Notes: generated by a model not told the origin, from the sequence alone. DNA of 64,000 nucleotides from Candidatus Moraniibacteriota bacterium (GCA_027008775.1 JALVDV010000001.1:73934-137933), one strand, 5' to 3'. Counted from the first letter of the stretch, positions 28,149-55,639 are shown. Numbers and translations are program-made.

Positions 28149-28176
28149 ATTATGATATTATCAATAATATCATAAT
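28149..28176. repeat. 28-bp palindromic repeat ATTATGATATTAT-CA-ATAATATCATAAT, copy 1
   Basis: 13-nt arms are exact reverse complements around a 2-nt centre. One of 4 exact copies in the window. Confidence 0.85.
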
Positions 28177-28204
28177 AAAAGCTTCAACAACAGCAGGATT
28201 GGGT

Positions 28205-28232
28205 ATTATGATATTATTGATAATATCATAAT
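28205..28232. repeat. 28-bp palindromic repeat, copy 2 (opposite orientation, centre TG)
   Basis: ATTATGATATTATTGATAATATCATAAT, 28 bp after copy 1, ~210 bp upstream of ruvA. Confidence 0.85.
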
Positions 28233-28444
28233 GGGAGCATAACAGAAGATGATAGCGGAGAAATAAAAAGGATTGAAAAATTACAAAAAAGTTTGGATCC
28301 TCAATTGCTTGCTCACAATAAAATTTACAATAGAAAGTTGAGAAATAGTGACAATCATTTACTAAACAAAATACAACAAAGATTGAGTTAGCTAACAATT
28401 TATGCTATCATCCTAACATCAAGAAATTAATTCCGACAACTACA

Positions 28445-29023
28445 ATGATTGGAAAATTAACCGGAAAAATTGACGAATTATCAAACACTTCAGTAATTTT
28501 AGACGTCAACGGCGTCGGTTACCAGGTTCTTCTAAACGAAAACACCCTCAATAAACTTTCCGCTACAGGGGAGGGAGGAACAATCAGTCTGTTTATTCAC
28601 ACCGATGTTCGCGAAGACCACATTCAACTCTTCGGTTTTTTGGACCCCGCCGAATTAAAAATTTTTAAACTCTTACTAACCGTTTCCGGCATCGGTCCCA
28701 AAGCCGCCCTTGGCATCCTCAATGTCGCCTCCGCCGGCACCATCAAAAATGCCATCTTTCAACAAGACCACAACCTTCTCACTCAAGTACCAGGCATCGG
28801 CAAAAAAACCGCCGAACGGGTTTGCTTGGAACTGAACAACAAAATAGACAATCTGGAAATCAAAGATGAACCGGCCACCCAAACAAACCGCGAAGTGGTT
28901 GATGCTTTGGTGGCCATGGGCTATTCCGTCAGAGAAGCTCATCAAGCCTTAAAACTCCTTCCTCCGGAGATAACTGATGAAGCGGAAATGATAAAACTGG
29001 CTCTGAAAAATATGAATAAATAA
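28445..29023 (+). CDS. ruvA: Holliday junction DNA helicase RuvA
   Basis: MIGKLTGKI...VILDVNGVGYQV...LLTVSGIGPKAALGIL...QVPGIGKKTAERV, the canonical RuvA domains. Confidence 0.9.
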   Translation: MIGKLTGKIDELSNTSVILDVNGVGYQVLLNENTLNKLSATGEGGTISLFIHTDVREDHIQLFGFLDPAELKIFKLLLTVSGIGPKAALGILNVASAGTIKNAIFQQDHNLLTQVPGIGKKTAERVCLELNNKIDNLEIKDEPATQTNREVVDALVAMGYSVREAHQALKLLPPEITDEAEMIKLALKNMNK

Positions 29024-29031
29024 CTTACCAC

Positions 29032-30078
29032 TTGATATCAATGATAGCAAAAGACGGCGGTTTTCTACAATCAAAATGTTGGGATTGTTTTCAGCAAGCA
29101 CTGGGACGTAAAACAATCTACGTTGTAAAAGATGGCTTCAAATTTTTAGCTATCAAGCAAAATCTACCTTTAAAGCTGAACTATTTTCTAATCCCTCGCG
29201 GTCCGATTTTTAAAAAAAATCCAACTAACACAACCACTGCTCTCTCTTTCTTAGAATCTATTTTCAAAGTAGCTCAAAAAGAAAAAATTCCTTGGATAAA
29301 ATTTGAACCGCAAAAATCTTCCGACCTAAAAACAATCAAAAAAGCTCTCCAACTCTACAATCAACAACAAGGAACCGACTACTTTATCAAAAAATCCACT
29401 AAAGAACACCAACCGCGACAAACCGTTTTCGTTAACCTTCAACAAAAAAATCTGCTTTCAACCTTCAAATCAAAAACTCGTTACAATATTCGCCTTAGCC
29501 AACGCAAAGGCGTGCAAGTTTTTCAGGCTCGGCAACAAAAAGACATTAAGCAATTTTTGCAATTACTGCAAGAAACCGCTCATCGCAATCAAATTAAAAA
29601 TCATCCTTCCGTCTATTACCGCGCAATGATTGAAACGGGAACAAAAGGTTGCCGTGACAAAAAGGGTGGGAAAGCTTGCCAAAACAAAATTCGTCTTTAT
29701 CTGGCGCGACAGCAAAATGATATCCTGGCCGGAGCCATCGTTTCCTTTTCCAGCCAAGTAGCCACCTATCTACACGGCGCCTCCTCTAATCAGAAAAGAA
29801 ATCTAATGGCTCCCTTTGCCCTACACTGGCATATAATCCGGGAGGCTCAAGAAAAAGGTTATCGCTATTATGACTTGGGTGGAGTCAAAGCTTTTTATTC
29901 TCGGAACAAGCTGCAACCGGAACAAGGAGGTTGGTTTGGTCTAACCAGATTTAAACTGGGCTTCTGCCCGCAGGGACCGCTGATTGAGTTTCCCGGCGGT
30001 TACAATTTGGTTTTAAACAAAACGAAATACAATTTCTATCGCCTCGCGCAAAGCTTAAAAAATAAATTTCCTTTCTAA
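29032..30078 (+). CDS. FemAB-family peptidyl/aminoacyl transferase (peptidoglycan interpeptide bridge formation)
   Basis: 348 aa with FemABX-like features (KCWDCFQQALG...FLIPRGPIF...LYLARQQNDILAGAIVSF...YYDLGGV). Adjacent to a Mur ligase. Confidence 0.6.
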   Translation: MISMIAKDGGFLQSKCWDCFQQALGRKTIYVVKDGFKFLAIKQNLPLKLNYFLIPRGPIFKKNPTNTTTALSFLESIFKVAQKEKIPWIKFEPQKSSDLKTIKKALQLYNQQQGTDYFIKKSTKEHQPRQTVFVNLQQKNLLSTFKSKTRYNIRLSQRKGVQVFQARQQKDIKQFLQLLQETAHRNQIKNHPSVYYRAMIETGTKGCRDKKGGKACQNKIRLYLARQQNDILAGAIVSFSSQVATYLHGASSNQKRNLMAPFALHWHIIREAQEKGYRYYDLGGVKAFYSRNKLQPEQGGWFGLTRFKLGFCPQGPLIEFPGGYNLVLNKTKYNFYRLAQSLKNKFPF

Positions 30079-30079
30079 A

Positions 30080-31465
30080 ATGTCAAGACTGATTTTTTCA
30101 CTCAAAAAAATAATTCCTGAGAAAATCTTAAACAAATTGCGACCAAGTTACCACCTTCTTTGGAATTTTTTCTCCGCTCTGCGCTACAATTTCCCCGCTC
30201 AAAAACTGTTGGTCATTGGTGTCACCGGCACTACCGGCAAAACCACCACAATTTTAATGTTGGCTAAAATCTTCCAAACAGCCGGCTTCAAAGTCGGTTA
30301 CACTTCCACCACTTTGTTTAGCGACGGCGACCGGGAATGGCTCAATGATAAAAAAATGACCATGTTGGGACGATCATTAACTCAAAAAATGCTGGCGAAA
30401 ATGCTTACCAACGGTTGCCAAGTCGCCATCGTGGAAACAACCTCCGAAGGCATTACGCAAAATCGTCACCGTTTTATAAACTACGATATTTGCTTGCTAA
30501 CCGACCTCTATCCGGAACATATTGAATCCCACGGCAGTTTTGCCAATTACAAGCAAGCCAAACTGGAACTCTTTCAACATCTGACCAAATCTAAAAGAAA
30601 AAAATTAAAACTAAACAAACTTCTTTCCGGTAGAATTCCCAAAACAATTATAGTCAATTTGGATAACAAACATGCTCCCGAATTTCTACAATTTCAAGTT
30701 GAACAAAAATTTGCTTTCAAAAAAGAAAGCTCCTCCTCCGCAACAAAAATGACTAATATCCCAACTGGCACCAAAATAATCACTTATCGTCTTTTGGAAA
30801 ACAACGAAAAGGGGAGCGCCTTTTTGGTTAACGCACAAGAAAAATTTCATTTGAACATTTTGGGCGAACACAACGTTATCAACGCCGTTGCCGCTTTAAC
30901 AGTTGCCAAATCTCTACAAATCTCCTCCGCCAAAATTCGCTCAGCCTTAGCCGCAATCAAAAACCTCCCGGGACGTTTGGAAAAAATAGAAGGGGGCCAA
31001 AATTTTACCGTCATCGTTGACTACGCTTTTGAACCGAAAGCTTTGCGAAAGTTGTATCAAAGCGTATCACACTTAAAACCGCAAAAAATAATTCACGTTC
31101 TCGGTTCGGCTGGGGGAGGGCGCGACACCGCTCGCCGACCAAAATTGGGAAAAATAGCCGGCGCTCTGGCCGATTATGTCATTGTCACCAATGAAGATCC
31201 CTACGACGACAATCCGCAAGAAATAATCAAACAGGTTGCCGGTGGCGCCTCGGCCAAGAATAAAATCCTCAACCGAAATCTTTTTCTGATTGAAGATCGT
31301 CGTCAAGCCATCAAAAAAGCTCTCTCTTTGGCGCAAAAAGGAGACTTGATCCTAATCACTGGTAAAGGAGCCGAGCAAGCCATCGCCGGACCAAAGGGCG
31401 AATTAATCCCCTGGGACGATCGTCAAATAGTCAAAGAGCTTTTGCAAAATACCATTAAAAAATAA
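30080..31465 (+). CDS. Mur ligase family protein, MurE-like (UDP-N-acetylmuramoyl-tripeptide synthetase)
   Basis: P-loop VIGVTGTTGKTTT, middle-domain motifs (NRHRFINYDICLLTDLYPEHIESHG), and a C-terminal Mur ligase domain. Confidence 0.75.
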   Translation: MSRLIFSLKKIIPEKILNKLRPSYHLLWNFFSALRYNFPAQKLLVIGVTGTTGKTTTILMLAKIFQTAGFKVGYTSTTLFSDGDREWLNDKKMTMLGRSLTQKMLAKMLTNGCQVAIVETTSEGITQNRHRFINYDICLLTDLYPEHIESHGSFANYKQAKLELFQHLTKSKRKKLKLNKLLSGRIPKTIIVNLDNKHAPEFLQFQVEQKFAFKKESSSSATKMTNIPTGTKIITYRLLENNEKGSAFLVNAQEKFHLNILGEHNVINAVAALTVAKSLQISSAKIRSALAAIKNLPGRLEKIEGGQNFTVIVDYAFEPKALRKLYQSVSHLKPQKIIHVLGSAGGGRDTARRPKLGKIAGALADYVIVTNEDPYDDNPQEIIKQVAGGASAKNKILNRNLFLIEDRRQAIKKALSLAQKGDLILITGKGAEQAIAGPKGELIPWDDRQIVKELLQNTIKK

Positions 31466-31497
31466 ATTCTAGACAAAAACGCTTGGTTAACTTCATA

Positions 31498-31533
31498 ACA
31501 CCAAAAGCAAAAAGACCCTTTTAACAGGGTCTT
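31498..31533 (-). terminator. Rho-independent terminator of rpmA
   Basis: AAGACCCT-TTTAAC-AGGGTCTT hairpin, followed on the minus strand by TTTTTGCTTTTGG. Confidence 0.65.
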
Positions 31534-31612
31534 CTTTAACTTAAAAATCCGGCACAGTTTCACTTGGGAAGCACTTGGAAAAGTCTTTCTGAATTTAAAA
31601 CAAAAACCAATC

Positions 31613-31897
31613 CTACTTCCCTTGAGCAACAACCTCCACAAAAGTCTTCTTTTTCAACTTGCCGGTAAATCCACTGATTTTTCGGGTGATAAAACTAACC
31701 GTACCGGTCGTCAAGGCTATCAGGGAATCATCAGCCGTTCTTTTAACGTTTTTACCCGGTTTAAACTTTGTTCCCCTTTGTCGCACCAAAATCTCGCCGG
31801 CTCGCACCTTTTGACCGCTAAAACGTTTCACTCCCAGATATTTTGGCCTGGAATCTCTTCCATTATCAGTTGAGCCTCCGGCTTTTCTATGAGCCAT
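31613..31897 (-). CDS. rpmA: 50S ribosomal protein L27 (with C-terminal extension)
   Basis: [51 protein letters not shown] is the canonical L27 N-terminus. Confidence 0.9.
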
Positions 31898-32022
31898 CTT
31901 TTTATCAATTAATTCTTAGAAAACGCGCTTTACTTTTTCTTTGCAATATGCTAGTTTCTCTAGAGAATTTAGCGCACACTGTATCCATTCAACTCTTCCC
32001 AGTATACCTAAAAATCAACTTT

Positions 32023-32451
32023 ATGTCAACAAAGAAAAATTGGTGGAAAAGGGAGGGACACGCTAAAACAATAATATTTTTTCTCAATATAATTTTAGCC
32101 GGTCTGGTTGGCTTTCAATTAGGAAAAGTGCAAGCCGGCCAAAATATTCCTATCAAAATTAATCTCCATAATCAAGGCGCTCAAAATCCCGCCAAAAAAG
32201 AATTAGAAATCGTCTCTCAATCACTAGAACGACAAGGCGTCATCAAAAAAGAAACTCTTATTAAAAACAACCAACAAAAATGTCTTTTTGTCGCTTCTCG
32301 TCGTTGCAAAAAATATCACCGTTCTGATTGTCGTTATGCTAAAAATATCAAAGAAAGCAACAAAGTTTGTTTTGCCAGTACTCAAGAAGCCGAAGCTAAA
32401 GGATACGGTCCCGCTCAAGGCTGCTTGGGTAAAAATAAGAATAAAAAATAA
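32023..32451 (+). CDS. Membrane-anchored protein with C-terminal Ada-like zinc-binding domain
   Basis: Start at internal ATG 32023 (MSTKKNWW...); one TM helix. The C-terminal CKKYHRSDCRYAKNIKESNKVCFASTQEAEAKGYGPAQGC resembles the Ada N-terminal Zn-binding motif (FHRPGCRY...N.V.F.S.EEA.AAGFRPCKRC). The 202-aa track ORF overlaps rpmA and its promoter. Confidence 0.45.
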   Translation: MSTKKNWWKREGHAKTIIFFLNIILAGLVGFQLGKVQAGQNIPIKINLHNQGAQNPAKKELEIVSQSLERQGVIKKETLIKNNQQKCLFVASRRCKKYHRSDCRYAKNIKESNKVCFASTQEAEAKGYGPAQGCLGKNKNKK

Positions 32452-32466
32452 AAATCAAATAAAATA

Positions 32467-33219
32467 ATGGGGAAAAGAAAAGGGGAAGGGGATAATAATC
32501 AAATTCCCGTCATCATTTCTCTAGGCGGTTCCCTCATCGCTCCCGTCGCCGGTCTTAATGTAAACTTTATCAGAGAGTTTAAAAAGCTTATTCTGCAAGA
32601 AATAGAGAAGGGCAGACGTTTCGTGATTATCACCGGTGGCGGACAGCTCAGTCGCAACTACGTCAAAGCCCTTAATCAAATCACTCCCAGCGATGAAGAA
32701 GAGCAAGATTGGCTAGGCATCCACGCCACCAGAATGAATGCTCATTTTATTAAAGCGGTCTTCAAAAAATATGCTCACCCTCGCATCAACAAAAACCCTC
32801 GCACCAAAGAAAATTTGCAAAAACATTTCGCTCAGGGAGAAAAAATTATGGTTGCCGCCGGTTGGCGTCCCGGTTGGTCCACCGACTACGTCGCTACCAT
32901 TCTGGCAGAAAGATTTAAAGCTAAAAAACTGATCAACCTTTCCAACGTTGAATATATTTTTGACCGCGATCCCAAAAAGCATCCCCAAGCCCAAAAAATC
33001 GAAGAAATCAGTTGGACTGATTTCCGCAAAATCGTCGGCAACAAATGGAGTCCCGGTCTAAATTCTCCCTTTGATCCCATCGCCGCCCGATTGGCGGAAA
33101 AAAATGACCTGGAAGTAGCCATTATTGCCGGCAAAAACCTGAGCAGTCTGTCTCGCTATCTCAACAATCAACCCTTCACCGGAAGTCTAATAAAAGGCTC
33201 AACCAACAACAAGGCTTAA
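32467..33219 (+). CDS. Amino-acid kinase family protein, probable archaeal-type UMP kinase
   Basis: VIISLGGSLIAP...FVIITGGGQLSRNY...MVAAGWRPGWSTDYVA: AAK-fold signatures with a length (250 aa) matching archaeal-type PyrH. Confidence 0.55.
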   Translation: MGKRKGEGDNNQIPVIISLGGSLIAPVAGLNVNFIREFKKLILQEIEKGRRFVIITGGGQLSRNYVKALNQITPSDEEEQDWLGIHATRMNAHFIKAVFKKYAHPRINKNPRTKENLQKHFAQGEKIMVAAGWRPGWSTDYVATILAERFKAKKLINLSNVEYIFDRDPKKHPQAQKIEEISWTDFRKIVGNKWSPGLNSPFDPIAARLAEKNDLEVAIIAGKNLSSLSRYLNNQPFTGSLIKGSTNNKA

Positions 33220-33471
33220 ACAACCCTCACCTCTTGACAATTTGCTTTTTTCTTTATACAATCACCAGATTGATAAAAGGCAAGAATACTTAAGTAAATT
33301 TCACTAAATTGACAAAACAAACAAAGGGGTTTATCATTTGAGTGTTCAACAACACAAAATACAAACGAACTACCTGTAAGTGTAGAAGCAGGTTGTTTTT
33401 ATTGTTGTTTCGATAAAACATATCTTAAATAACACCCCATCTAAATTTAGTTAAATCTATTTCAAATAATC

Positions 33472-34965
33472 ATGCCCCCGATTTTTGTTCAAGGAGAATC
33501 ATCTAAAAATTTCTGCCATCAAAAAAGCAACCCTCTCAATAATGGATTAGTTTTTAAGGGTAATAAATTCATTACCCATACTAATCTACATCCTAAATAC
33601 TCTGCTCTGGAAACTATACAAAATCACCAGAAATTGGTAATCATTGGTCTTTTGACTATTCTGTTACTTGGAATTATTGTAAATTGGCACCAAACAGTAC
33701 TAATAACTATTTCCGTTTTAACAATTCTATACTTTGCTGATTTATTATTCAATCTCTTTCTAACCGTTAAAACTCTTAGAAAAACACCTGAAATTGTTGT
33801 CAACAAACAAGAGATTTCGCTTCTCCAAGATAAAGATTTACCGATTTATACCATTTTCTGCCCCTTGTATAAAGAGTGGCAAGTATTACCCGACTTTATT
33901 AAATCCATTAGTAAAATAAATTGGCCAAAAAACAAATTAGATGTCCAGCTACTTCTGGAAGAAGACGATAAAAAAACAATTGCTGAAATAAAAAAAATGC
34001 GATTACCGAACCATTTTCGAGTTATCATCGTTCCACATAGTGAACCAAAAACCAAACCAAAGGCTTGTAATTACGGGCTACACCATGCGCAAGGCGAATA
34101 TGCCGTAATTTATGATGCTGAAGACAATCCTGATCCTAACCAGCTTAAAAAAGCTTTTATTGCTTTTCAAAAGACAAGAAAAAATAATGTGGTTTGCGTA
34201 CAAGCAAAATTAAATTTTTATAATTCACATCAAAATATTCTTACCAGATTTTTTACCATGGAATATTCTCTTTGGTTTGATTTAATTCTTCCTGGTCTGC
34301 AATCTATTAAAGCGCCCATTCCCCTGGGTGGAACATCTAATCACTTTCGCACCAAAGATCTAAAATATCTGCAAGGATGGGATCCTTTCAATGTTACTGA
34401 GGATTGTGATTTGGGAATAAGAATAGCTAAACTCGGTTTGCACACCGCCATTATAAACTCTACCACCCTGGAAGAAGCAAATAGTAAACTCGGCAACTGG
34501 TTCAGGCAACGCTCTCGTTGGATTAAAGGTTATATGCAAACCTATCTGGTACACATGCGACGACCCCACGAATTTATAACCGATTTTAAAAATCCAAACA
34601 TTTTATTCTTCCAGCTAACAGTTGGTGGTAAAATCTTGTCTCTTTTCATAAACCCCCTAATGTGGATAATGACTATATCATACTTTCTATTCAAAGATTC
34701 TCTGGGGCCAATCATTGAATCTTTCTATTTAACTCCTGTTTTCTACATGGCCATCTTTTCATTAATAATTGGTAACTTTTTTTATATCTACAATTATATG
34801 ATTGGATGCGCAAAGAGAGAACAATGGGATATAATAAAATATGCCTTCCTGGTACCATTCTATTGGTTGGCAATCAGTCTAGCCGCCTGGAAAGCTTTAT
34901 TTCAACTTGTAACCAAACCTCACTACTGGGAAAAAACAGTGCATGGATTACATCTAAAAAAATAG
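33472..34965 (+). CDS. Membrane GT2 processive beta-glycosyltransferase (cellulose/chitin/PNAG synthase-like, QxxRW)
   Basis: N- and C-terminal TM helices. GT2 core with DAEDNPD (DxD), and QRSRWIKG (QxxRW), the processive-synthase hallmark. Confidence 0.75.
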   Translation: MPPIFVQGESSKNFCHQKSNPLNNGLVFKGNKFITHTNLHPKYSALETIQNHQKLVIIGLLTILLLGIIVNWHQTVLITISVLTILYFADLLFNLFLTVKTLRKTPEIVVNKQEISLLQDKDLPIYTIFCPLYKEWQVLPDFIKSISKINWPKNKLDVQLLLEEDDKKTIAEIKKMRLPNHFRVIIVPHSEPKTKPKACNYGLHHAQGEYAVIYDAEDNPDPNQLKKAFIAFQKTRKNNVVCVQAKLNFYNSHQNILTRFFTMEYSLWFDLILPGLQSIKAPIPLGGTSNHFRTKDLKYLQGWDPFNVTEDCDLGIRIAKLGLHTAIINSTTLEEANSKLGNWFRQRSRWIKGYMQTYLVHMRRPHEFITDFKNPNILFFQLTVGGKILSLFINPLMWIMTISYFLFKDSLGPIIESFYLTPVFYMAIFSLIIGNFFYIYNYMIGCAKREQWDIIKYAFLVPFYWLAISLAAWKALFQLVTKPHYWEKTVHGLHLKK

Positions 34966-34971
34966 AATTTT

Positions 34972-48707: not shown

Positions 48708-48741
48708 AAAATCATTCTCTAATTATATCTTTAAAAATTTT

Positions 48742-49329
48742 TCAGAGTTTTAAAACATTAACACCCAGCTTCTTCAAACCCAAATACAATTTTGTCAAAG
48801 GCAATCCGATTATCGAGAAAAAATCCCCCTCCACCGCCTCAGTCAAAATCGCCCCTTTATTCAACAAACCAAAACCGCCGGCAAAAGTCAAAATATTCTT
48901 TTCACTGCTAACATAATCCGCTATTTCTTTTACAGTTAACTTTCGGAATTTAACCCAGCCAATCCCGTAATCACTAATCGCTTTTCCAGTCTTTGCATTA
49001 ATAAGCGCCAATCCAGAAACAAGACCAACTCGCTTCCCGGAAAATTTTGTCAAAACATTTATCGCTTCGTTCTCATCTTTGGGCTTACCGATTACTTCAT
49101 TCGCCAAGAAAACCATTGTGTCGCCGGCGACAACAATTCCTTCACTATAATGACTAGCCACCTCCTTAGCTTTTCCCATCGCTAAAAATTGAGCCAACTC
49201 TACCGGCTTTTTATCCAGAGTCATATCTTCCTGATAATCACTTTCCCTGACAATAAAATCAGTTAAACCAATCTGTTTTAACAATTGTTGACGACGCTCT
49301 GATTTTGAAGCCAAAATTATTTTTTTCAT
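48742..49329 (-). CDS. maf: Maf-like nucleoside triphosphate pyrophosphatase
   Basis: KIILASKSERRQQLLKQIGL...VVAGDTMV...FAGGFGL carries the Maf/Ham1 signature. Confidence 0.85.
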   Translation of the reverse strand: MKKIILASKSERRQQLLKQIGLTDFIVRESDYQEDMTLDKKPVELAQFLAMGKAKEVASHYSEGIVVAGDTMVFLANEVIGKPKDENEAINVLTKFSGKRVGLVSGLALINAKTGKAISDYGIGWVKFRKLTVKEIADYVSSEKNILTFAGGFGLLNKGAILTEAVEGDFFSIIGLPLTKLYLGLKKLGVNVLKL

Positions 49330-49952
49330 TTCTCTCCCGTCTTTTTAATATTTTCCACAATCTCCGGGAAATCATCCGTGATAAAATGCCCCTTGTCCTG
49401 GAAAACAAAAAACTTTGCTCCCGGCAAAAGTTTTTTATACTTCTCCATATCGGTAAAAGGAACAATCGGATCATCAAGTGAGTGATAAAAAAACAACCTC
49501 CCCGCCAATTTTCTTCCCACATTGTTCTTTAATTTTTCTGAATCTAAAACAAATCCATCCAAATAATCATGGTTGCCATTTTTATCTCCAAACGGGGGCG
49601 CAATTAAGTGCACCTGCCCTATTCCCACCGGAAACTCATTCTCGTTAAGATATTTTAACCAAAAAATTCCCCCTAAAGAGTGACCAATTAAAACAACATC
49701 ATCCGTCAGATAAGGAAAATATTTCTCTATCCAAATCTTCCACTCCAAGTATTTGGCATTCCTCGGACAAGGCATCCGAGATAAAATCACTTGATAGCCA
49801 TCTCCCAAATCTTCTTGTAAAAGATCCTTCCAACGTTTTTCTCTTTTTTGACTAGCGGAAAAATCCAATTCATAGCCCCTCAGATAATCCAAATATTCAT
49901 CGTAGGTTTTAAAAGTCTCTCCTCCGTGAACGACCAAAACTTGCTTTTTCAT
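49326..49952 (-). CDS. Alpha/beta hydrolase, YdeN/RBBP9-like serine hydrolase
   Basis: MKKQVLVVHGG...VVLIGHSLGGIFWLKYL (GxSxG nucleophile elbow). Start taken at the internal ATG (49952) because the longer track ORF would overlap tRNA-Val. Confidence 0.7.
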   Translation of the reverse strand: MKKQVLVVHGGETFKTYDEYLDYLRGYELDFSASQKREKRWKDLLQEDLGDGYQVILSRMPCPRNAKYLEWKIWIEKYFPYLTDDVVLIGHSLGGIFWLKYLNENEFPVGIGQVHLIAPPFGDKNGNHDYLDGFVLDSEKLKNNVGRKLAGRLFFYHSLDDPIVPFTDMEKYKKLLPGAKFFVFQDKGHFITDDFPEIVENIKKTGEK

Positions 49953-50015
49953 AACAATCTTACTTACTACAAAATCCAAATAGCATAACTCGAACGTATC
50001 CTTCGGAAATTTACG

Positions 50016-50089
50016 TGGACAATACAGGATTTGAACCTGTGACCTCTCGCACGTCAAGCGAGCGCTCTAACCAACTGAGCTAATTGTCC
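50016..50089 (-). tRNA. tRNA-Val (anticodon GAC)
   Basis: The reverse complement GGACAATTAGCTCAGTTGGTTAGAGCGCTCGCTTGACGTGCGAGAGGTCACAGGTTCAAATCCTGTATTGTCCA folds as a cloverleaf: 7-bp acceptor stem, D-loop AGTTGGTTA, anticodon loop TTGACGT, T-loop TTCAAAT. CCA is not encoded. Confidence 0.8.
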
Positions 50090-50111
50090 ATACAACATTA
50101 ATCTTACCTAT

Positions 50112-50150
50112 AGCTTCTCGCCCGTCAAGAGAGCGCTCCTCGCCCAAACA
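50112..50150 (-). other. Partial tRNA-Val-like duplicate (anticodon-region fragment)
   Basis: TTCTCGCCCGTCAAGAGAGCGCTCCTCGCCC resembles the D/anticodon segment of the adjacent tRNA (CTCTCGCACGTCAAGCGAGCGCTCTAACC) but cannot complete a cloverleaf. Confidence 0.3.
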
Positions 50151-50308
50151 TACCGTTCGGTACGGACGGGTAACCTACCGAACTAAACTAACTTCCCAAA
50201 ATAAATCAAACAATTTTCCGCCTATCATTTATCAATTAAAAATCCCAACAGCCCACCAAAAATCAACGTGGAAACAAGCATTGGAATTATACTACTGACA
50301 TCACCCCT

Positions 50309-50560
50309 TCAAACTGGAAAAGTGATTGGTAACAACGTCAAAACAACCAGCACAACTCCTTTGTAGATGCCTCTAATTTTCATGTCTGTCGTGGCCACCA
50401 AAAACCCAACGACTAACCAATGGAAAAAAGCAGAGAAATCAGCTTCCCACTCCAGTTTCATTAAAATCATCGATACAACATCCAGTGGATCAACCACCGC
50501 TCCCAAAAAAAGAGCTTTTTGATTTTTTCCATAAAGTAGCAATAAATAATTTTCAAACAA
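50309..50560 (-). CDS. Possible small membrane protein (83 aa)
   Basis: ORF with two hydrophobic segments; weak evidence. Confidence 0.25.
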   Translation of the reverse strand: MFENYLLLLYGKNQKALFLGAVVDPLDVVSMILMKLEWEADFSAFFHWLVVGFLVATTDMKIRGIYKGVVLVVLTLLPITFPV

Positions 50561-50914
50561 CTACTTAAGTCAACTATTCTCTGACTCGTTTATTCTATAT
50601 TTTTTTCCATTTTTTTGCAACCAGATCCCCACAATTTATCCCATTTTATTTGCCAAGCTTGTTTAACAATCAACTTCTAAATGAAGCAACATATCTTCAT
50701 GCAAATCCCGCAAATAATCAGTGAGCAAAATCCAACACAATCAACAAGAGTAACACTCAATCAATTTAATCGGTCAATCTGCATTTCCGAATCACCAAAC
50801 AACCAACATTTACCACCAAGTACCGTGATTAAATATAACTGAAAAACCTAAAAACAAAAGATATCACATATTCTCCAGTCACTTCCTCTTCCGCTATTAT
50901 AATTACCACCTTCC

Positions 50915-50942
50915 ATTATGATATTATCAATAATATCATAAT
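50915..50942. repeat. 28-bp palindromic repeat, copy 3
   Basis: ATTATGATATTATCAATAATATCATAAT, exact. Confidence 0.85.
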
Positions 50943-51012
50943 GGTTACGCTTACAGACAAACTCTTTTCCTCTTCCTCATTCGATCATAACTGTCATCAC
51001 CACTTCCACTAT

Positions 51013-51519
51013 CTATTTTTCAGTATCATAAAACAATACTTCACAAGCATATTTATCGCAAAATCTCAAAAAATCATCCTTTTTTATTTTCAAAGAAGCC
51101 GTATTCCGAAAAGGATGGAAATGAATATAGTCGGAAACCAAAATATCCTTGTCTATTATCAAAGGAATATTTTTAGCTCCGGGATAAATCAGTGCCAACG
51201 GTGTCACTGAGCCGGGACTAAGACCCAAATATTTCGCCAATCTTTCCTCAGAAGCAAAGCCCATTTTCCGATGTTCACCTAAAAACTCAGCCAAATGGGG
51301 TATATCCAAACGCTTATCGGCTCTCAGCACCAATAAATAATGCCTGCGACCTCTTTTATCACGCAAAAACATATTTTTACAATCAATTCCCATTTCATTT
51401 TTCTGGTAAAAATCTCCCGAGGCCTCACAAGTAGCAAAAGCGGGATGTTCAAATTTTTGATATTTTATATTCAAATCATCTAAAATTTTATACAATTTTT
51501 TTTCATATTCCTCATTCAT
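51013..51519 (-). CDS. YbaK/ProX-type aminoacyl-tRNA editing deacylase
   Basis: YbaK-domain features: CKNMFLRDKRGRRHYLLVL...YLGLSPGSVTPLAL. Confidence 0.7.
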   Translation of the reverse strand: MNEEYEKKLYKILDDLNIKYQKFEHPAFATCEASGDFYQKNEMGIDCKNMFLRDKRGRRHYLLVLRADKRLDIPHLAEFLGEHRKMGFASEERLAKYLGLSPGSVTPLALIYPGAKNIPLIIDKDILVSDYIHFHPFRNTASLKIKKDDFLRFCDKYACEVLFYDTEK

Positions 51520-51581
51520 TTTTTTGAATTTATCACTTAAAATTTTTAAATTAAATTTCAGAAGAAAAACCTTTGAAAAGT

Positions 51582-52322
51582 CTAGTTTGTCGAAACATAT
51601 TTTAAAAGAACAATGCCAGCAAAGCGACCGGTTTGATTGTTTTCGGCGCGACGATAAGAAAAGTAATTTTGGTCACAGTGATTGCAAGTTTTGCTGACAA
51701 ATATATTTTCCTTTTTAACGCCGACTTTTAACAATTGGTCTTGGTTTAATAAAGGTAAATCAAGATTAGTTTCGTTATAAATATATTTTTTACTCCACCG
51801 TTTTTCAAATCGCTGGATAGTATTTTGATCTATTCTATAACAATCCTTTTGAATAGATGGTCCTAAAAACACCTGAATATCTTGAGTATTGGAATTGTAT
51901 TCCTTTTGTAACTTTAAAATCATTTTTCCGGCAATATTTAAAAAACTACCCTCTCGTCCGGCGTGAGCAACGGCAATTACTTTTTGCCTTGGATCATAAA
52001 ACAAAATCGGAATACAATCAGCTACCAGAACCATCAAAGCCAGTCCCGGTTGAACGGTAATTAAGCCATCGGTTCCCAAAGACTCTCCGCTTTGAGCAAC
52101 GCTTGCAATTTTATCAGAATGCACCTGATTCATCCAAACGAAATTTTCCTGATCAACTCCCAGTTCTTTCGCCAACAACCTTCTATTTTCCAAAACATCT
52201 TCTCTTTTATCTCCAACATGTAATGCCAGGTTCAAAGTATCGTAAGGTGATTCACTCACCCCGCCCCACCGATTTGTAAATCCCGCCACCACTGTCTTCG
52301 TTTCCAAAACTTTTTGAAACAT
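51582..52322 (-). CDS. pgeF: Purine nucleoside phosphorylase / laccase-domain protein PgeF (YfiH family)
   Basis: Cu-oxidase_4/YfiH signature: NRWGGVSESPYDTLNLALHVGD...VLVADCIPILFYDP...AVAHAGREG. Confidence 0.85.
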   Translation of the reverse strand: MFQKVLETKTVVAGFTNRWGGVSESPYDTLNLALHVGDKREDVLENRRLLAKELGVDQENFVWMNQVHSDKIASVAQSGESLGTDGLITVQPGLALMVLVADCIPILFYDPRQKVIAVAHAGREGSFLNIAGKMILKLQKEYNSNTQDIQVFLGPSIQKDCYRIDQNTIQRFEKRWSKKYIYNETNLDLPLLNQDQLLKVGVKKENIFVSKTCNHCDQNYFSYRRAENNQTGRFAGIVLLKYVSTN

Positions 52323-52369
52323 AAATCAATCTTTTAAAGTCTTTTAATTTAATATCTATTTTTAATTAT

Positions 52370-52560
52370 CCATCTTTTAGCTATCTGTCTCTCAGTTGCC
52401 AGACATCTTTTAATTATTCGTCTATTGGTTGTCTGTCTCTTAGTTGTCTATTTGTTAATCGTCTGTCTCCTAGTTGTTTGTCTCCTAGTTATTTGTCTTT
52501 TAATTGTTTATCTTTTAGTTACCTATCTCCTGACTATCCATCTTTTAACAACTTTTACTC
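52370..52560. repeat. Degenerate tandem array (~9 units of ~15-17 bp, consensus TTGTCTRTCTCYTAG)
   Basis: Read directly: ...TTGTCTGTCTCTTAG TTGTCTATTTGTTAATCG TCTGTCTCCTAG TTGTTTGTCTCCTAG TTATTTGTCTTTTAA TTGTTTATCTTTTAG TTACCTATCTCCTGAC... The spurious 65-aa ORF here reflects the repeat periodicity. Confidence 0.7.
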
Positions 52561-52577
52561 AACACTCTTTAACCTCT

Positions 52578-52613
52578 TACTATCATATAAGGTTGTGTAG
52601 TTGTATGATAGTA
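52578..52613. repeat. 36-bp hairpin repeat TACTATCATA-TAAGGTTGTGTAGTTG-TATGATAGTA, copy 1
   Basis: 10-bp exact inverted arms with a 16-nt loop. One of 4 identical copies (also at 56697, 58280, 59044). Confidence 0.85.
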
Positions 52614-52702
52614 TTTCGATAGTATTTTGGTTGGATTTATTATTTTTTAGCCTATTTTACCAAATGCTTGTCATAGCCTTATTTTATTAATTCCTCCCTT
52701 AC

Positions 52703-53060
52703 TTACTCAACAGCTTGCGAAACATCTTGCGGAACATCTTGCGGAATTTGAAAGCCCTTCTGCGGATAAATTTTTATTCTTTGTAAATCACCGACCATAA
52801 TGTTAACCACTCTGTCAAAAACATTGAAACCGTTTTCTTCCGGATAATCGGCAAAGGATATTTGCGAAGAAGTAACCGTTATTTCCACTCCCCGCTCCGA
52901 CCAAAAACAACTTCGCTCCTCGCTCCGCCACTCGAGTATCATGACTGCCCAATACCAAAATCAAATCCGCTTTTTTTAATTTGTGATTTAGATGATAATA
53001 ATCCCAAATTCTCCGCGCCAGTTTTTTTATTTTCTTTTTATCTTTAATGGTATTATTCAT
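52703..53060 (-). pseudogene. Frameshifted DUF218 (YdcF/SanA-like) gene
   Basis: Two overlapping minus-strand ORFs in different frames (52815-53060 with ADLILVLGSHDTRVAERGAKLF; 52703-52942 with the C-terminal part) together span one DUF218-like protein, indicating a frameshift near 52900-52940. Confidence 0.45.
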
Positions 53061-53379
53061 ATCGTTTTTTTATTTTTTTAATTTTATTTTCCAAGGCCGT
53101 TTTTATATCAACGGCCGACACCTCAGCCAACAACAAAGTGGTGATTATAACATCCGCCAATTCATTCGGTAAATTGTTTTTCACTTTCATTTTTGACAAT
53201 TTTTCTTTTCGCTGGTCATTATCCAAAGCTAAAATTTCCGCGCACAACTCGCCAACCTCCTCATTAAGTTTGACCGTTCGCGGTAAAACAATCTCCCGTG
53301 AGGATGATCCTTGACCGTGTTTTTTCACCAATCGCTCACTTTCCGATTTAATAAATTGCAACAATTCTTGAAAGCTCAT
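53053..53379 (-). CDS. MazG-like nucleotide pyrophosphohydrolase (all-alpha NTP-PPase)
   Basis: EEVGELCAEI...ELADVIITTLLLAEV are the MazG core helices with metal-binding EExxE/D. Confidence 0.65.
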   Translation of the reverse strand: MSFQELLQFIKSESERLVKKHGQGSSSREIVLPRTVKLNEEVGELCAEILALDNDQRKEKLSKMKVKNNLPNELADVIITTLLLAEVSAVDIKTALENKIKKIKKRYE

Positions 53380-53524
53380 ATAGTTTTAAAATTTATAAAG
53401 TTATCCATTTTTACCCCAAAATTCACTCTTTGCTTTTCTATAATTTTGATACGGCTTACCTTGATGCTCTTTTTTTAACAAATTGAAATCTTGTCTGGCA
53501 CATTCGTCTTTCTTTAAAATCTCC

Positions 53525-54058
53525 ATAGATACCCCCGCCCTTACAGGCGGGGTTCTTTTTATATTACAAGCTGCGCTTGTCCCGCATCTTCCTCGCCTTG
53601 TTTACGGACATATTCTTGAATTATTTTTTCATTGATACCGACAGTGGATACAAAATATCCTTTTGACCATATTCCTTTGTTGTCCCAATACACTTTTTTG
53701 AGAAACTTGAATTTGTTTTTTAAGCTTCTGCCAGTGTTGGATTTTATTGTTTCCACAACTTTACTTATGGCATATTTGGGGGGAATTATCATATGTAGAT
53801 GAATATGGTCTTTGTCGATTCCCATTTCAATATAAATCCGGTCCGGATAATATTTATTCACTTCTTGGAGTTTTATACGGAGACAGGAATCAACTCCTTT
53901 GACCAGTATTTTCCTTCTGTATCTGGTTGGCCACACTATGTGATATTGGGTTCCGTATACACTATGGTTTGCTTTGTATAGTTTCATATCCTCCATTATA
54001 CAGGAAGATGCGGGATTTGGCTCTCATCCCCGCCCTTACAGGCGGGGAGTTCTCGCTG
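53525..54058 (-). mobile_element. IS200-like element (tnpA only) bounded by direct-repeat GC hairpins and internal inverted repeats
   Basis: CCCCGCC-CTTACA-GGCGGGG occurs at 53533-53552 and 54028-54047 in the same orientation. Subterminal inverted repeats TCCCGCATCTTCC (53581-93) and GGAAGATGCGGGA (54003-15). The GC-rich ends contrast with the AT-rich host sequence. Confidence 0.8.
53559..53996 (-). CDS. tnpA: IS200/IS605-family Y1 (HUH) transposase TnpA
   Basis: YHIVWPTRYRRKIL, HUH motif HIHLHMI, and catalytic-Tyr region GYFVSTVG; 145 aa, typical of IS200 TnpA. Confidence 0.9.
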   Translation of the reverse strand: MEDMKLYKANHSVYGTQYHIVWPTRYRRKILVKGVDSCLRIKLQEVNKYYPDRIYIEMGIDKDHIHLHMIIPPKYAISKVVETIKSNTGRSLKNKFKFLKKVYWDNKGIWSKGYFVSTVGINEKIIQEYVRKQGEEDAGQAQLVI

Positions 54059-54413
54059 AATTAAATATATGAAACTCATCAAAACGAGAATCTTTAATAA
54101 CCAGCATGATATCAACAGATTCTAAATCAGGTGGAATATTTTTTTCTTTGAATATCGCCAACCCCTCATTCTTACCAACAACCCAGACGTCCTCATGTTC
54201 GGCAACAAATACTTCTTTAAACTTTTCTATCGCTGATTGGAAATCACTTCCTCGCACTCGCACGGTTATATCCAAATCTTTTTTGGTTAACATTCCGGAA
54301 ACCGCCGAACTACCCACATGTTCAACTTCCGCCTCCGGTACCAATTCTAAGATTTTGTTTTTTATTTTTGCATATTCCGCCTCAATCACTTCTTTGCATA
54401 AGATGAGATACAT
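54036..54413 (-). CDS. GrpB-family protein (UPF0157, nucleotidyltransferase-like)
   Basis: VEHVGSSAVSGMLTKKDLDITV matches the GrpB motif HVGSTAVPGL.AKPIIDI. Start at internal ATG (MYLILCKE). Confidence 0.6.
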   Translation of the reverse strand: MYLILCKEVIEAEYAKIKNKILELVPEAEVEHVGSSAVSGMLTKKDLDITVRVRGSDFQSAIEKFKEVFVAEHEDVWVVGKNEGLAIFKEKNIPPDLESVDIMLVIKDSRFDEFHIFNSARTPRL

Positions 54414-54461
54414 CTTGGACACCCCTAAAAAAGATATTATGCTAAAAAAGGTTAACCAATA

Positions 54462-55532
54462 ATGTATCTCAAAAAAATGAAAACCAAACAAGTGGGATAT
54501 TATCTGATTCCCAATATTAAAATATCCAAAACAAAATACATTCGTTGGAAAAAGATAGCTAAAACATTAAATCTATCCCAGAAAGCCAGACAAAGATTGG
54601 ATTGGATAATATACTATTACACCAAAGCCAATCAGAACGCCTCTCTAACTTGCAAGCACTTTGGTATTAGCAGATCCAAATGGTATTTCTGGATAAATAA
54701 GTTTGCTGAAACCAACTTGAGAACTCTAGAAAATAATCCCACAGTTCCTTTTAAAAAAAGAGAAAAAGAATACACTGATTTACAATATGAAAGAGTGGTA
54801 AAATTAAGAAGACAATTTATCAAATACGGAAAGGTAAAACTGCTTAAAAAATATCAATCATTATACCCGGAGGATAAAAACATCAGCCAATGGAAGATTC
54901 AATGTATTATTCAAGTATCAGGAATCTATTATCACCCTAAAAAAGCCTTTAAAACGGCTAATAAACGAAGAAAAGCCATTCAGAAGAAAAAGATAACCGA
55001 ATTGAAAAAGAAACCTAAGAGTGGTTATCTAATAGCTTTGGATACAATTGTTAGAATAATCAACGGTCAAAGAAGATATATCATCACCGCCATAGACACT
55101 TATTCCAAAATAGCTTATGCCAGAATGTATAGTTCTCACAGTTCAATACAAGCTGAAGATTTTTTAATGAGATTAAATTATCTCCTAAATGGCAAGATGG
55201 AAAACATTCTAACCGATAATGGCTCAGAGTTTCAAAAACATTTTGAAAAAGCTTGTCAAAGATTAAACTTAAAGAGATACTACAGCCGAGTGAGACAACC
55301 TAAGGATAATCCCGTTTGTGAAAGATTTAACAGAACTTTAAATGAAGAATTCATCCAATTGGGCAATTTAACAACAGATGTAAAAACTTTTAACAGTAAT
55401 TTAACTGATTGGTTGATTGAATACAACTTTCACAGACCTCATCAAGCTTTGGATTATATGACTCCTATAGAATTTACTCAAAAATATGCCAAAGTGTCCA
55501 AGAGGTGGTCATCTAATACATTCTTTGATTGA
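54462..55532 (+). CDS. DDE-type integrase/transposase (rve core; IS481/IS3-like) with N-terminal HTH
   Basis: rve-core features: ALDTIVRIINGQRRYIITAIDTYSK...LTDNGSEF (second D)...NPVCERFNRTLNEE (E)...HRPHQAL. Confidence 0.85.
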   Translation: MYLKKMKTKQVGYYLIPNIKISKTKYIRWKKIAKTLNLSQKARQRLDWIIYYYTKANQNASLTCKHFGISRSKWYFWINKFAETNLRTLENNPTVPFKKREKEYTDLQYERVVKLRRQFIKYGKVKLLKKYQSLYPEDKNISQWKIQCIIQVSGIYYHPKKAFKTANKRRKAIQKKKITELKKKPKSGYLIALDTIVRIINGQRRYIITAIDTYSKIAYARMYSSHSSIQAEDFLMRLNYLLNGKMENILTDNGSEFQKHFEKACQRLNLKRYYSRVRQPKDNPVCERFNRTLNEEFIQLGNLTTDVKTFNSNLTDWLIEYNFHRPHQALDYMTPIEFTQKYAKVSKRWSSNTFFD

Positions 55533-55611
55533 TTCCTGCGGAACAAAATTACATATTCTTTCTCGCATAGTTTTAAGAACTTATAAAATCTCCAACAAAT
55601 TATTTTCACCT

Positions 55612-55639
55612 ATTATGATATTATCAATAATATCATAAT
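55612..55639. repeat. 28-bp palindromic repeat, copy 4
   Basis: ATTATGATATTATCAATAATATCATAAT, exact. Lies 80 bp after the transposase stop, between convergent genes. Confidence 0.85.

Follow-up and report, generated by a model that had tools for sequence, protein, structure and literature searches.

A dispersed 28-bp palindrome as a predicted operator of a small ArsR-like winged-helix protein in Patescibacteria

Four exact copies of a 28-bp palindrome lie in a 64,000-nucleotide stretch of DNA from a Candidatus Moraniibacteriota bacterium, referred to here as the window. What could such a sequence do, and which protein, if any, might recognise it? The answer that is considered probable is that the palindromes are double-stranded operators, bound in Patescibacteria by a homodimeric winged helix-turn-helix (wHTH) protein of about 95 residues with the ArsR/SmtB fold.

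The palindrome in the window and in other genomes

The sequence ATTATGATATTAT-NN-ATAATATCATAAT occurs as an exact 28-mer at positions 28149, 28205, 50915 and 55612 of the 64-kb window. Three copies (28149-28176, 50915-50942 and 55612-55639) are in plus orientation, and the copy at 28205-28232 has the centre TG, which makes it the exact reverse complement of the others. A sequence-only reading had described four exact 13-2-13 copies, one with an inverted centre, and this is confirmed by a mismatch-tolerant scan and by shuffling. No further site with up to three mismatches to the 28-mer exists in the whole window, and the 28-mer has no match in 100 dinucleotide-preserving shuffles. The frame ATTAT-N3-ATTAT-N2-ATAAT-N3-ATAAT, again with up to three mismatches, finds only the same four sites in the window, where 0.01 are expected.

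The sites and the genes around them are listed below.

28149-28176, no strand assigned: palindrome copy 1, predicted wHTH dimer site; exact match, ATTAT-GAT-ATTAT CA ATAAT-ATC-ATAAT
28177-28204, no strand assigned: 28-bp spacer between copies 1 and 2, read from the sequence
28205-28232, no strand assigned: palindrome copy 2, centre TG; exact reverse complement of copy 1
50915-50942, no strand assigned: palindrome copy 3; exact match
55612-55639, no strand assigned: palindrome copy 4; exact match
53394-55596, no strand assigned: insertion of about 2.2 kb with two small ORFs and the rve/DDE transposase, absent from the related contig L071; context only
27120-27650, minus strand: CMD-like gene
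28445-29023, plus strand: ruvA
50015-50089, minus strand: tRNA-Val
50309-50560, minus strand: ORF
51013-51519, minus strand: YbaK/tRNA_edit gene
54462-55532, plus strand: rve/DDE transposase ORF
55668-56558, minus strand: ORF convergent with the transposase

The gene context also proved to be as first described, with a pair in the divergent gap before ruvA, one copy between tRNA-Val and ybaK, and one downstream of the DDE transposase. Copies 1 and 2 share the 795-bp gap between the CMD-like gene and ruvA. From copy 1 it is 498 bp to the start of the CMD-like gene and 268 bp to that of ruvA, copy 2 is 212 bp upstream of the ruvA ATG, and the best sigma-70-like ruvA promoter (TTGAGT-17-TATCAT, 28383-28411) begins about 150 bp downstream of copy 2. 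Because the two copies are exact reverse complements, they and one flanking base on each side make up an inverted repeat of 29 bp whose arms are 26 nt apart. A homologous double site is found in the related loci L102 and L120, and the spacer is weakly conserved in L102.

Copy 3 lies 70 bp past the YbaK-like stop codon; relative to ORF 50309-50560 and to tRNA-Val, it is 354 bp and 825 bp upstream, respectively. Copy 4 follows the transposase ORF by 79 bp and is 28 bp from the stop of ORF 55668-56558.

Likeness between the window copies ends at 28 bp, save for a preferred T/A just outside. Every copy is exact, with no degenerate relatives in the window. This differs from transcription-factor sites, which are normally degenerate, and points to copying rather than independent origin. 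Single 13-bp arms, counted alone, are not enriched in the window, and a DNA-uptake sequence is rejected because of this. Association with an origin or terminus was ruled out as well: DnaA boxes are at chance level in the window, and GC skew is uniformly negative across it, with no terminus or origin signal. At the Rfam gathering threshold, only tRNAs are found in the window and in four palindrome-rich loci. A full-text literature search for either arm returned only unrelated papers, and nothing describing the 28-bp motif was found in the literature on CPR regulation and LexA.

Outside the window, the same 26 specified bases occur at 20 loci from eight CPR MAGs, and a near-copy with a different outermost base pair occurs in one Wolbachia genome. 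At least 78 sites with full ATT/AAT ends are found in both scans combined, the per-contig copy numbers of the metagenome scan being minimum values; about 60 of the metagenome matches listed agree in the 10-2-10 core alone and are unrelated, AT-rich DNA. The carriers, which are CPR MAGs and metagenome contigs, range from 28 to 45% GC, and across this range 20 of the 26 specified positions are invariant. The centre dinucleotide is unconstrained (CA, TG, GA, TC, AA, AT, GT, GC). In the loci collected, 82 exact sites compare with about ten genuine variants with one or two mismatches.

Intergenic sites are conserved base for base across lineages. The positional check suggested by the earlier reading, whether copies lie inside coding sequence, gave a clear answer: none of about 70 sites listed lies within a real gene, and all are intergenic. 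In tandem gaps, the site is at most 27 bp after a stop in 15 of 41 cases and at most 57 bp before a start in 18 of 41. Sites are also found in divergent gaps and directly upstream of start codons. Convergent gaps are not depleted, holding 6 of 61 classified sites as compared with 60 of 466 background gaps. Most neighbours are genes for tRNAs, translation or the envelope, and they are not SOS genes. Presence of the palindrome varies among relatives, as between loci L015 and L006 or between the window and L141.

A winged-helix protein beside the palindrome

A candidate partner can be found by starting from either the DNA or the protein. Starting from the palindrome, a wHTH gene of 94-102 aa adjoins the site in L015, L006/L068, L024/L075/L107, L048 and L116. 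Starting from the protein, homologues were found by sequence alone and their contigs were then fetched; in 12 of 12 distinct contexts, a palindrome stands both before the ATG and after the stop. Taken together, a palindrome of the 13-2-13 type lies beside the gene for this protein of about 95 aa in 17 separate homologue contexts. All related genomes examined have a palindrome on one side of the gene or, nearly always, on both. The upstream palindrome is 15-52 bp before the wHTH ATG in 16 of 17 contexts (the exception is L006/L068), a place at the putative regulator's own promoter that predicts autoregulation, and the downstream palindrome is usually 1-18 bp past the stop.

No wHTH homologue is detected by tblastn in the 64-kb window. 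Locus L048 does encode one, and because it comes from the same metagenome as L071, a contig 92% identical to the window, the window's genome presumably encodes the protein outside the 64 kb.

The structure predicted by AlphaFold, from an alignment of database sequences only, has a pLDDT of 95.8 and the topology a1-a2-a3-aR-b1-b2-a5. Foldseek gives TM values of about 0.75-0.82 to CzrA, SmtB, NolR, HlyU and CadC and also about 0.8 to Rv0081, and the top PDB matches include 3gw2, an ArsR-like regulator from Mycobacterium. The protein scores above the cut-offs of Pfam MarR and HTH_24, and reaches 35-40 bits against NCBIfam NF033788 (ArsR), whose cut-off is 55. Cys is absent from its sequences, as is any His/Asp/Glu cluster in alpha5, so that it resembles the non-metal members HlyU and NolR. 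Profile and structure comparison find no other domain, catalytic or otherwise. The candidate is a wHTH conserved in Patescibacteria (Paceibacteria/Parcubacteria-type lineages) without a recognisable sensor site.

Variants of the site differ only at arm positions 6-8, with complementary changes in both arms, as fits a homodimeric regulator and its operator. Distinct variants go with diverged homologues and with paralogues of one genome. Contig k141_50138 encodes protein P0012, paired with ACG-AT-CGT, and P0032, paired with GTT-GC-AAC. On FLOH01000029, the site of P0011 is AGT-GC-ACT, and P0025 is accompanied by clustered sites of the ATT type with the centre AT. In MAG JAGLLX01, P0024 goes with GTT, and canonical GAT sites lie elsewhere in the same MAG.

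The variants can be compared with the recognition helix. Among homologues with a YQT-x-A-[S/T]-H helix whose upstream site was identified, seven of nine carry GAT, the variant of the window (P0009 and P0015 are the exceptions, and P0006 has GAT only downstream), and homologues with an A-V-H helix have a non-GAT variant in six of six. A simple rule in which Ser/Thr before His means GAT fits most proteins and predicted P0024 correctly, but it failed for P0009 (GAG) and P0015 and was rejected in that form. P0015 has an A-S-H helix yet is bracketed by GTT and CTT variants, and P0011 and P0008 share the same recognition helix yet go with AGT and GTT. The link from triplet to recognition helix is imperfect.

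The suggestion that a 13-2-13 dyad is the operator of a dimeric HTH regulator is therefore supported, and can be tied to a candidate ArsR-like wHTH whose gene adjoins the palindrome. The protein is predicted to bind the palindrome. Each monomer would read one 13-bp arm, ATTAT-GAT-ATTAT, with the central 2 bp as an unread spacer. Because a site stands shortly before the ATG and usually another after the stop, the wHTH probably represses its own gene and the downstream gene. The extra exact copies would put other intergenic regions under the same protein; in the window, these would be the gap between the CMD-like gene and ruvA, the region downstream of ybaK and the region downstream of ORF 55668. 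The best guess at the regulatory outcome is repression by promoter occlusion or by a roadblock, because the arms carry an extended -10-like TGATATTAT and many sites are 13-57 bp from a start codon.

Other explanations for the palindrome

Some positions are odd for a simple promoter operator, namely the sites in convergent gaps and those in MAG WGDO01 that precede a separate TTGACA-17-TATAAT promoter by about 75 bp. It can be asked whether the wHTH and its palindrome are instead a self-bracketed module, found throughout Patescibacteria, that serves to punctuate the genome and not as a classical regulon operator; this is rated as rather unlikely. Protein-bound palindromes would then mark the boundaries of transcription units in very compact genomes, with bound sites acting as roadblocks, insulators or protein-assisted bidirectional terminators. 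The sites would spread as exact copies, and paralogues with non-cross-reacting variants would coexist in one genome. In a related view, the repressor-operator pair may be a selfish element in its own right, one that spreads by copying.

A distinctly unlikely explanation is that the palindrome works chiefly as a hairpin of RNA or single-stranded DNA, and that the wHTH is tolerated or was recruited secondarily. The hairpin could be a 3'-end, terminator or mRNA-stabilising stem-loop whose sequence is conserved, or it could be REP-like. The arms do stay complementary through one to three changes per arm (22 fully symmetric non-canonical sites were counted), several single mismatches are G.T, and orthologous sites can have flipped centres, TG or CA, as in hairpin loops. 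The tandem sites close behind a stop and the sites in convergent gaps would also suit a hairpin, but those in divergent gaps and directly upstream of start codons would not.

In several genomes, the flanks lengthen the stem with unrelated covarying sequence, and in some there are A/T tracts; in L031, L099 and L121, aaaaaaacc[28]ggttttttt reaches -29.5 kcal/mol. The 28-mer alone, however, folds at only -8.6 kcal/mol. None of the four window copies is called terminator-like: each stem has one G-C pair, copies 1-3 have no T tract, and the intrinsic combination of a G+C-rich stem and a T tract is absent. Only in some other lineages (L031, L099, L121) do flanking G-C pairs and A/T tracts supply such features, and ordinary GC-rich terminators are used by the same lineage (L078). 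A hairpin also leaves unexplained the 20 invariant positions, the constant wHTH neighbour and the paralogue-specific triplets, and the flanked gene is no Y1 (RAYT) transposase.

Mobile-element ends or remnants, whether terminal repeats of the DDE transposase or a minimal MITE, had been offered as an alternative by the sequence-only reading. This is now very improbable and largely refuted. In its favour are the proximity of copy 4 to the transposase ORF, the exactness of the copies, their differing presence between relatives, and the frequent T...A just outside the 28-mer. Locus L071, 92% identical to the window across copy 4, keeps the site without the 2.2-kb transposase segment and joins window position 55597 almost directly to 53393, so copy 4 is not an IS end. 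The site there lies 55 bp upstream of the homologue of ORF 53053-53379, in tandem arrangement. A search for related sequence at the far end of the transposase segment found neither a copy nor a matching inverted repeat. The MITE form fails because only 28 bp are common to the copies and there is no consistent target-site duplication, the flanks being T/A, C/G, C/A or T/G. No transposase or serine recombinase is consistently nearby in the loci examined, and 2.9 million viral contigs contain no match to the 28-mer.

Equally hard to credit is that the copies are LexA/SOS operators for ruvA, as the pair upstream of that gene had suggested, or serine-recombinase crossover sites, for the motif has no GAAC-N4-GTTC or CTGT-N8-ACAG core, L141 shares the ruvA-FemAB synteny and has no palindrome upstream of ruvA, the neighbours are not SOS genes, and the site's constant companion protein is ArsR-like rather than LexA and contains no catalytic domain. 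The sole GAAC-type near-match in the ruvA gap (27740-27753) is at chance level. Invertase and resolvase crossover sites (hix, res site I) have a 12-2-12 geometry, which a 13-2-13 palindrome with a free central dinucleotide in both orientations does resemble; tblastn with Hin and gamma-delta resolvase queries found no serine recombinase in the window and no consistent match in the loci.

Comparison with known systems

The preferred reading, an operator bound by a dimeric wHTH, has its closest parallels in the ArsR/SmtB repressors (SmtB, CzrA, ZiaR and AzuR, and the non-metal HlyU, NolR, PagR and Rv0081), which have the same small dimeric fold. For SmtB/ArsR proteins, the binding sites are 12-2-12 inverted repeats that lie at their promoters or close to them (PMC8790569). 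In both systems, the inverted repeat has 2 bp at its centre and is placed at the regulator's own gene or upstream of it, near the start codon (PMC8790569). The CPR arms differ in being 13 bp long and perfectly symmetric, whereas ArsR/SmtB arms are imperfect. The CPR protein lacks alpha3N and alpha5 metal ligands and falls below the NCBIfam ArsR cut-offs. Sites bracket its gene from both sides, many more exact copies are spread over intergenic DNA, non-promoter positions included, and several paralogues with distinct site variants can be found in one genome.

AspA of the Sulfolobus plasmid pNOB8 (PDB 4rs8, 5k1y) is likewise an ArsR-like wHTH of about 90 aa, and binds centromeres. It matches the CPR protein weakly in sequence (E about 4e-4) and in structure with TM 0.68-0.82. 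AspA binds a palindrome next to its own gene. Unlike the CPR protein, it partners ParA and ParB in segregating the plasmid and spreads from a single site; the CPR gene has no consistent ParA/ParB partners, though L150 has ParB two genes away, and the CPR sites are many and dispersed.

REP/BIME sequences are short intergenic palindromes, often just past stops and sometimes in inverted doublets, and the RAYT gene is flanked by such repeats. The CPR palindromes are also short, intergenic, often past a stop, found as a doublet, and flank a dedicated gene. That gene, however, encodes a wHTH without a Y1 transposase domain. The CPR sequence is conserved across deep lineages, whereas REP is species-specific; it has no GTAG-type cleavage motif, and there are apparently tens of copies per genome as against hundreds for REP.

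RTP of Bacillus subtilis is a small winged-helix dimer with multiple chromosomal sites of about 30 bp, and its gene lies beside such sites and is autoregulated by them. The CPR system is similar in its small winged-helix protein, its multiple chromosomal sites and a gene beside its own sites. RTP Ter sites are asymmetric, polar and clustered at the terminus, whereas the CPR sites are symmetric and the window has no terminus or origin signal.

Patescibacteria (CPR) account for a large part of bacterial diversity. Their genomes are tiny and encode very few transcription factors, and hardly any of these bacteria can, to our knowledge, be grown alone, so that their gene regulation is essentially unmapped. 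Here, a specific small protein can be paired with a specific 28-bp site from genome context alone, across many lineages. Natural specificity variants exist at arm positions 6-8, and the pair is directly testable in vitro without cultivation. If confirmed, the wHTH would be a candidate major or global regulator in Patescibacteria. Its variants would provide a natural collection of compact repressor-operator pairs, perhaps free of cross-reaction, in which the co-evolution of protein and operator specificity could be neatly studied.

A portable promoter with a fixed -35 element was considered and rejected: across 77 sites, in both directions, there is no TTGACA-like enrichment at any spacing from TATTAT, and no -35-like hexamer stands at a fixed spacing from the arm's -10-like element. 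Individual promoters do fit an overlap with the site. In L141, the overlapping promoter is TTGACG-18-TATTAT with an upstream TG, and copy 4 of the window is overlapped on the minus strand by TTGAAA-18-TATTAT, also with an upstream TG (55656-55627).

The palindrome copies in the window

The 28-mer ATTATGATATTAT-CA-ATAATATCATAAT has exact matches at window positions 28149, 50915 and 55612. The copy at 28205 has the centre TG and is the exact reverse complement of the 28-mer. Allowing up to 3 mismatches added no site in the window, and shuffled sequence gave 0 matches. Likewise, the frame ATTAT-N3-ATTAT-N2-ATAAT-N3-ATAAT with up to 3 mismatches found the same four window sites only, against 0.01 expected. 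These searches bear out the four exact copies, one of them with inverted centre, that had been read from the sequence alone, and the neighbouring genes agree with the settings given there:

28149 and 28205 (copies 1 and 2): CMD-like gene and ruvA, divergent
50915 (copy 3): YbaK-like gene and tRNA-Val, 70 bp past the ybaK stop
55612 (copy 4): rve/DDE transposase and a convergent ORF

Single 13-mer arms are not enriched in the window beyond the palindromes. When the four copies are aligned with their flanks, similarity stops at 28 bp. Rfam detected only tRNA in the window.

Each copy (e.g. 28152-28175) can also be read in frame, on either strand, as the mini-ORF ATG ATA TTA TCA ATA ATA TCA TAA (MILSIIS*), which probably just reflects the ATTATG/CATAAT symmetry. 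Adjoining tRNA-Val, the ORF at 49326-50057 matches a serine-hydrolase family (PF06821); a domain of the same family is inserted in a valyl-tRNA synthetase (residues 449-601) on another contig (L013, 2715-5882).

Occurrence and position in other genomes

One genome per species was scanned with TATGATATTAT-NN-ATAATATCATA, giving 21 loci, and the window is none of the contigs matched. Twenty of the loci come from Patescibacteria/CPR MAGs whose labels read Paceibacterota, Parcubacteria or Patescibacteria and, in one case, Saccharibacteria. All of these CPR sites have full 13-bp arms and vary at the central dinucleotide only; their hosts range from 28 to 45% GC (window, 38%). The remaining locus is a Wolbachia near-copy with a different outermost base pair. 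This site, in the Wolbachia endosymbiont of Howardula (L021, NZ_CP092368, 7348-7375), is a perfect 13-2-13 palindrome, TTTATGATATTAT-TC-ATAATATCATAAA, and its only difference from the CPR site is itself a symmetric change.

When metagenomes were scanned with the shorter core ATGATATTAT-NN-ATAATATCAT, at least 116 loci matched. Both scans combined hold at least 78 sites with full ATT/AAT ends; the other ~60 among the matches listed end in unrelated sequence and form a separate population that looks like chance occurrence. In five metagenome contigs (L042, L043, L061, L064, L087) the core lies within longer perfect palindromes, with arms up to 23 bp and different outer arms. The viral contigs scanned contained no palindrome, and no paper was found that describes the motif in this sense.

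Gene positions were assigned with a simple ORF caller for ~70 non-redundant sites among the matches listed. None lies within a real gene, the "inside" calls being short spurious ORFs. Sites fall in 41 tandem, 14 divergent and 6 convergent gaps, against 334, 72 and 60 background gaps; convergent gaps thus show no depletion. Sites in tandem gaps are near gene ends: 15 of 41 are at most 27 bp past the upstream stop, and 18 of 41 are 13-57 bp ahead of the downstream start. In the MAG WGDO01, which has at least 14 copies of the palindrome, it belongs to a repeated intergenic segment, directly past the stop of one paralogue and ~75 bp upstream of the clear TTGACA-17-TATAAT promoter of the next. Genes recurring downstream of sites are the winged-helix gene described below, mnmA, miaA, valS, yqeY and a GT4 glycosyltransferase. 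This pattern hints at a possible tRNA and translation theme.

A gene-poor region of one metagenome contig (L078, Ga0256832_1000111, 1-2000) holds 5-6 palindromes, among them a compensated variant, ATTATGAAATTAT-CA-ATAATTTCATAAT. It also has a DnaA-box-like TTATCCACAgtttTTCCACA near position 585 and a GC-rich probable ncRNA, without Rfam match, which follows a TTGACA-17-TATAAT promoter and ends in a canonical terminator near 895-935.

The winged-helix gene and its site

Annotation of flanking ORFs revealed a gene for a ~95-aa MarR/ArsR-like winged-helix protein (wHTH) adjoining the palindrome in two loci, L006 and L015. By tblastn it was also found beside palindromes in L024/L075/L107, L048 and L116; in L048, from the same metagenome as L071 (discussed below), it is bracketed by the exact window palindrome. 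No wHTH gene was found in the 64-kb window.

To avoid the bias of starting from palindromes, homologues were searched by wHTH sequence, giving 13 matches, then 48 with a profile. All are ~95 aa and come from sources named Patescibacteria, Pacebacteria or Campbellbacteria. For 12 distinct homologues the contig was examined, and all 12 genes are bracketed by 13-2-13 palindromes. The upstream palindrome ends 15-52 bp before the ATG, and the downstream one begins 1-18 bp past the stop (55 bp in L145). Adding 5 palindrome-side contexts, an upstream site is present in 16 of 17; the exception, L006/L068, has the downstream copy only.

The protein matches Pfam MarR and HTH_24 above cut-offs. Its best NCBIfam model is an ArsR/SmtB metalloregulator subfamily (35-40 bits, below the cut-off of 55), and PDB sequence matches are weak (SlyA, a MarR protein, AspA, HlyU, PagR, ArsR). 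The AlphaFold model, based on 27 family members (pLDDT 95.8), has five helices and a beta-hairpin in ArsR/SmtB topology. Its Foldseek neighbours are an ArsR-like Mycobacterium regulator (3gw2), CzrA, NolR, SmtB, HlyU, CadC and Rv0081 (TM ~0.75-0.82). Cysteine is absent from the family sequences, as are alpha5 metal ligands; the protein thus appears to be a minimal DNA binder of ArsR type that lacks a sensor site. Classical SmtB/ArsR binding sites are 12-2-12 inverted repeats at or near repressed promoters, including their own (PMC8790569); the 13-2-13 palindrome with its free centre fits this geometry.

The window's canonical site is ATTAT-GAT-ATTAT NN ATAAT-ATC-ATAAT. Beside more diverged homologues, changes are limited to arm positions 6-8 (the triplet) and the centre, and are mirrored in the other arm.

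Site variants at wHTH homologues (P) and loci (L)
P0011: AGT-GC-ACT
P0012: ACG-AT-CGT
P0008, P0032, P0024: GTT-GC-AAC
P0009: GAG-CA-CTC
L116: AAT-AC-ATT
L141 (additional sites): CAT...ATG
P0025: seven clustered ATT-type sites, AT centre

Paralogues in the same genome differ in their variant. Contig k141_50138 encodes P0012 (ACG) and P0032 (GTT), FLOH01000029 has P0011 (AGT) and P0025 (ATT type), and the MAG JAGLLX01 combines P0024 (GTT) with canonical GAT sites at L009 and L011. Orthologues in one syntenic slot can also carry different triplets (transketolase-wHTH-mnmA; cation ATPase-wHTH-yqeY; wHTH-RNase R-mraZ).

Among proteins whose upstream site is identified, nine have the recognition helix YQT-x-A-[S/T]-H, and the triplet is GAT in seven of them; P0006, with the same helix, has a GAT site downstream only. 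All 6 proteins with the helix A-V-H have non-GAT triplets. This correspondence has exceptions: the triplet of P0015 (A-S-H) is GTT at the upstream site and CTT at the downstream one, P0009 (A-T-H) goes with GAG, and P0011 and P0008 share one recognition helix with different triplets. A homodimer reading each arm would explain both the mirrored changes and the divergence among paralogues, which would avoid cross-talk. Hairpin selection or template-switch "palindrome correction" possibly contributes to the mirroring.

Proposed mechanism and alternatives

The palindromes are probably operators of a wHTH dimer, and the best-supported prediction is that the protein represses its own gene. The sequence-only reading had expected a dimeric HTH operator from the 13-2-13 dyad; the bracketing of 12 of 12 genes and the mirrored arm changes make this a likely interpretation. 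Each arm contains TGATATTAT, an inward-pointing extended -10-like element. Given this element and sites 13-57 bp from many starts, we infer that the dimer, once bound, would act by occluding initiation or by blocking elongation. Promoters that fit this are TTGACG-18-TATTAT in L141 and, overlapping copy 4 on the minus strand, TTGAAA-18-TATTAT with TG upstream. Two findings limit this model: no general -35 occurs at a fixed spacing from the arm element, and some sites are far from every start codon or have convergent genes on either side.

ArsR-like autorepressors with dyad operators are well known, but this subfamily and its site appear undescribed in the literature. What is unusual is an operator kept base for base across lineages whose proteins are only ~60% identical, a regulator gene bracketed on both sides, many exact copies scattered through intergenic DNA, and distinct site variants among paralogues.

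It is unlikely that the palindrome is mainly a hairpin or REP-like element, since the 28-mer alone folds with only -8.6 kcal/mol. In some Paceibacterota, however, the flanks make a textbook bidirectional terminator (-29.5 kcal/mol). Copies 1 and 2 (28149-28232), centre included, are exact reverse complements of each other, and a transcript across both could therefore form a 29-bp duplex (-36 kcal/mol). It is thus plausible that the site acts secondarily as a hairpin in some lineages. L053, L102 and L120 have similar double sites, with spacers of 26-28 bp.

An origin as transposase ends, or as a MITE, had been named as an alternative in the sequence-only reading and is very improbable. Contig L071 (metagenome Ga0256832) matches window 55597-56580 at 92% identity, palindrome included, and past that stretch runs directly into the homologue of the window ORF at 53053-53379. 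It lacks this segment:

53394-55596: 2.2-kb transposase segment, two small ORFs and the rve/DDE transposase

L071 thus has copy 4 without the transposase, which argues that the segment is a later insertion. Together with the short TTAAAACTAT-like direct repeat at its borders, its absence from L071 makes it look like a recent IS insertion adjoining copy 4. No inverted repeat pairing the palindrome with the far end of the segment was found. In the ancestral arrangement, copy 4 is 34 bp past one gene and 55 bp ahead of the next. Another ~730-bp stretch (52323-53052) is likewise missing in L071.

LexA operators or serine-recombinase crossover sites are likewise very improbable. For the crossover sites, the window encodes no serine recombinase, and the loci show none with any consistency. 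DNA-damage regulation, suggested from the pair near ruvA, is not supported. The best candidate promoter of ruvA is at least ~150 bp downstream of copies 1 and 2. L102 and L120 have a homologous double site, and L141, with the same ruvA-FemAB synteny and a ruvA 56% identical, has no palindrome at that place, which argues that the ruvA link is not conserved.

Upstream of the CMD-like gene, window 27718-27816 holds a 36-nt imperfect inverted repeat (81% complementary, 27-nt loop) without Rfam match; L113 has a homologous self-complementary region. Within it, CGAACGCATGTTTG (27740-27753) differs at a single position from a LexA box of Gram-positive type, a match at chance level. The 18-nt sequence CAAAT(A/T)AAAATGTCATAC is directly repeated, at 27937 and 27963. 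Next comes a tract (~27990-28148), strongly A/C-rich and poor in G/T, that abuts copy 1. The divergent gap that holds 27937-28148 is 795 bp, unusually long for a compact genome, and this region is possibly a small gene or an RNA that lacks annotation.
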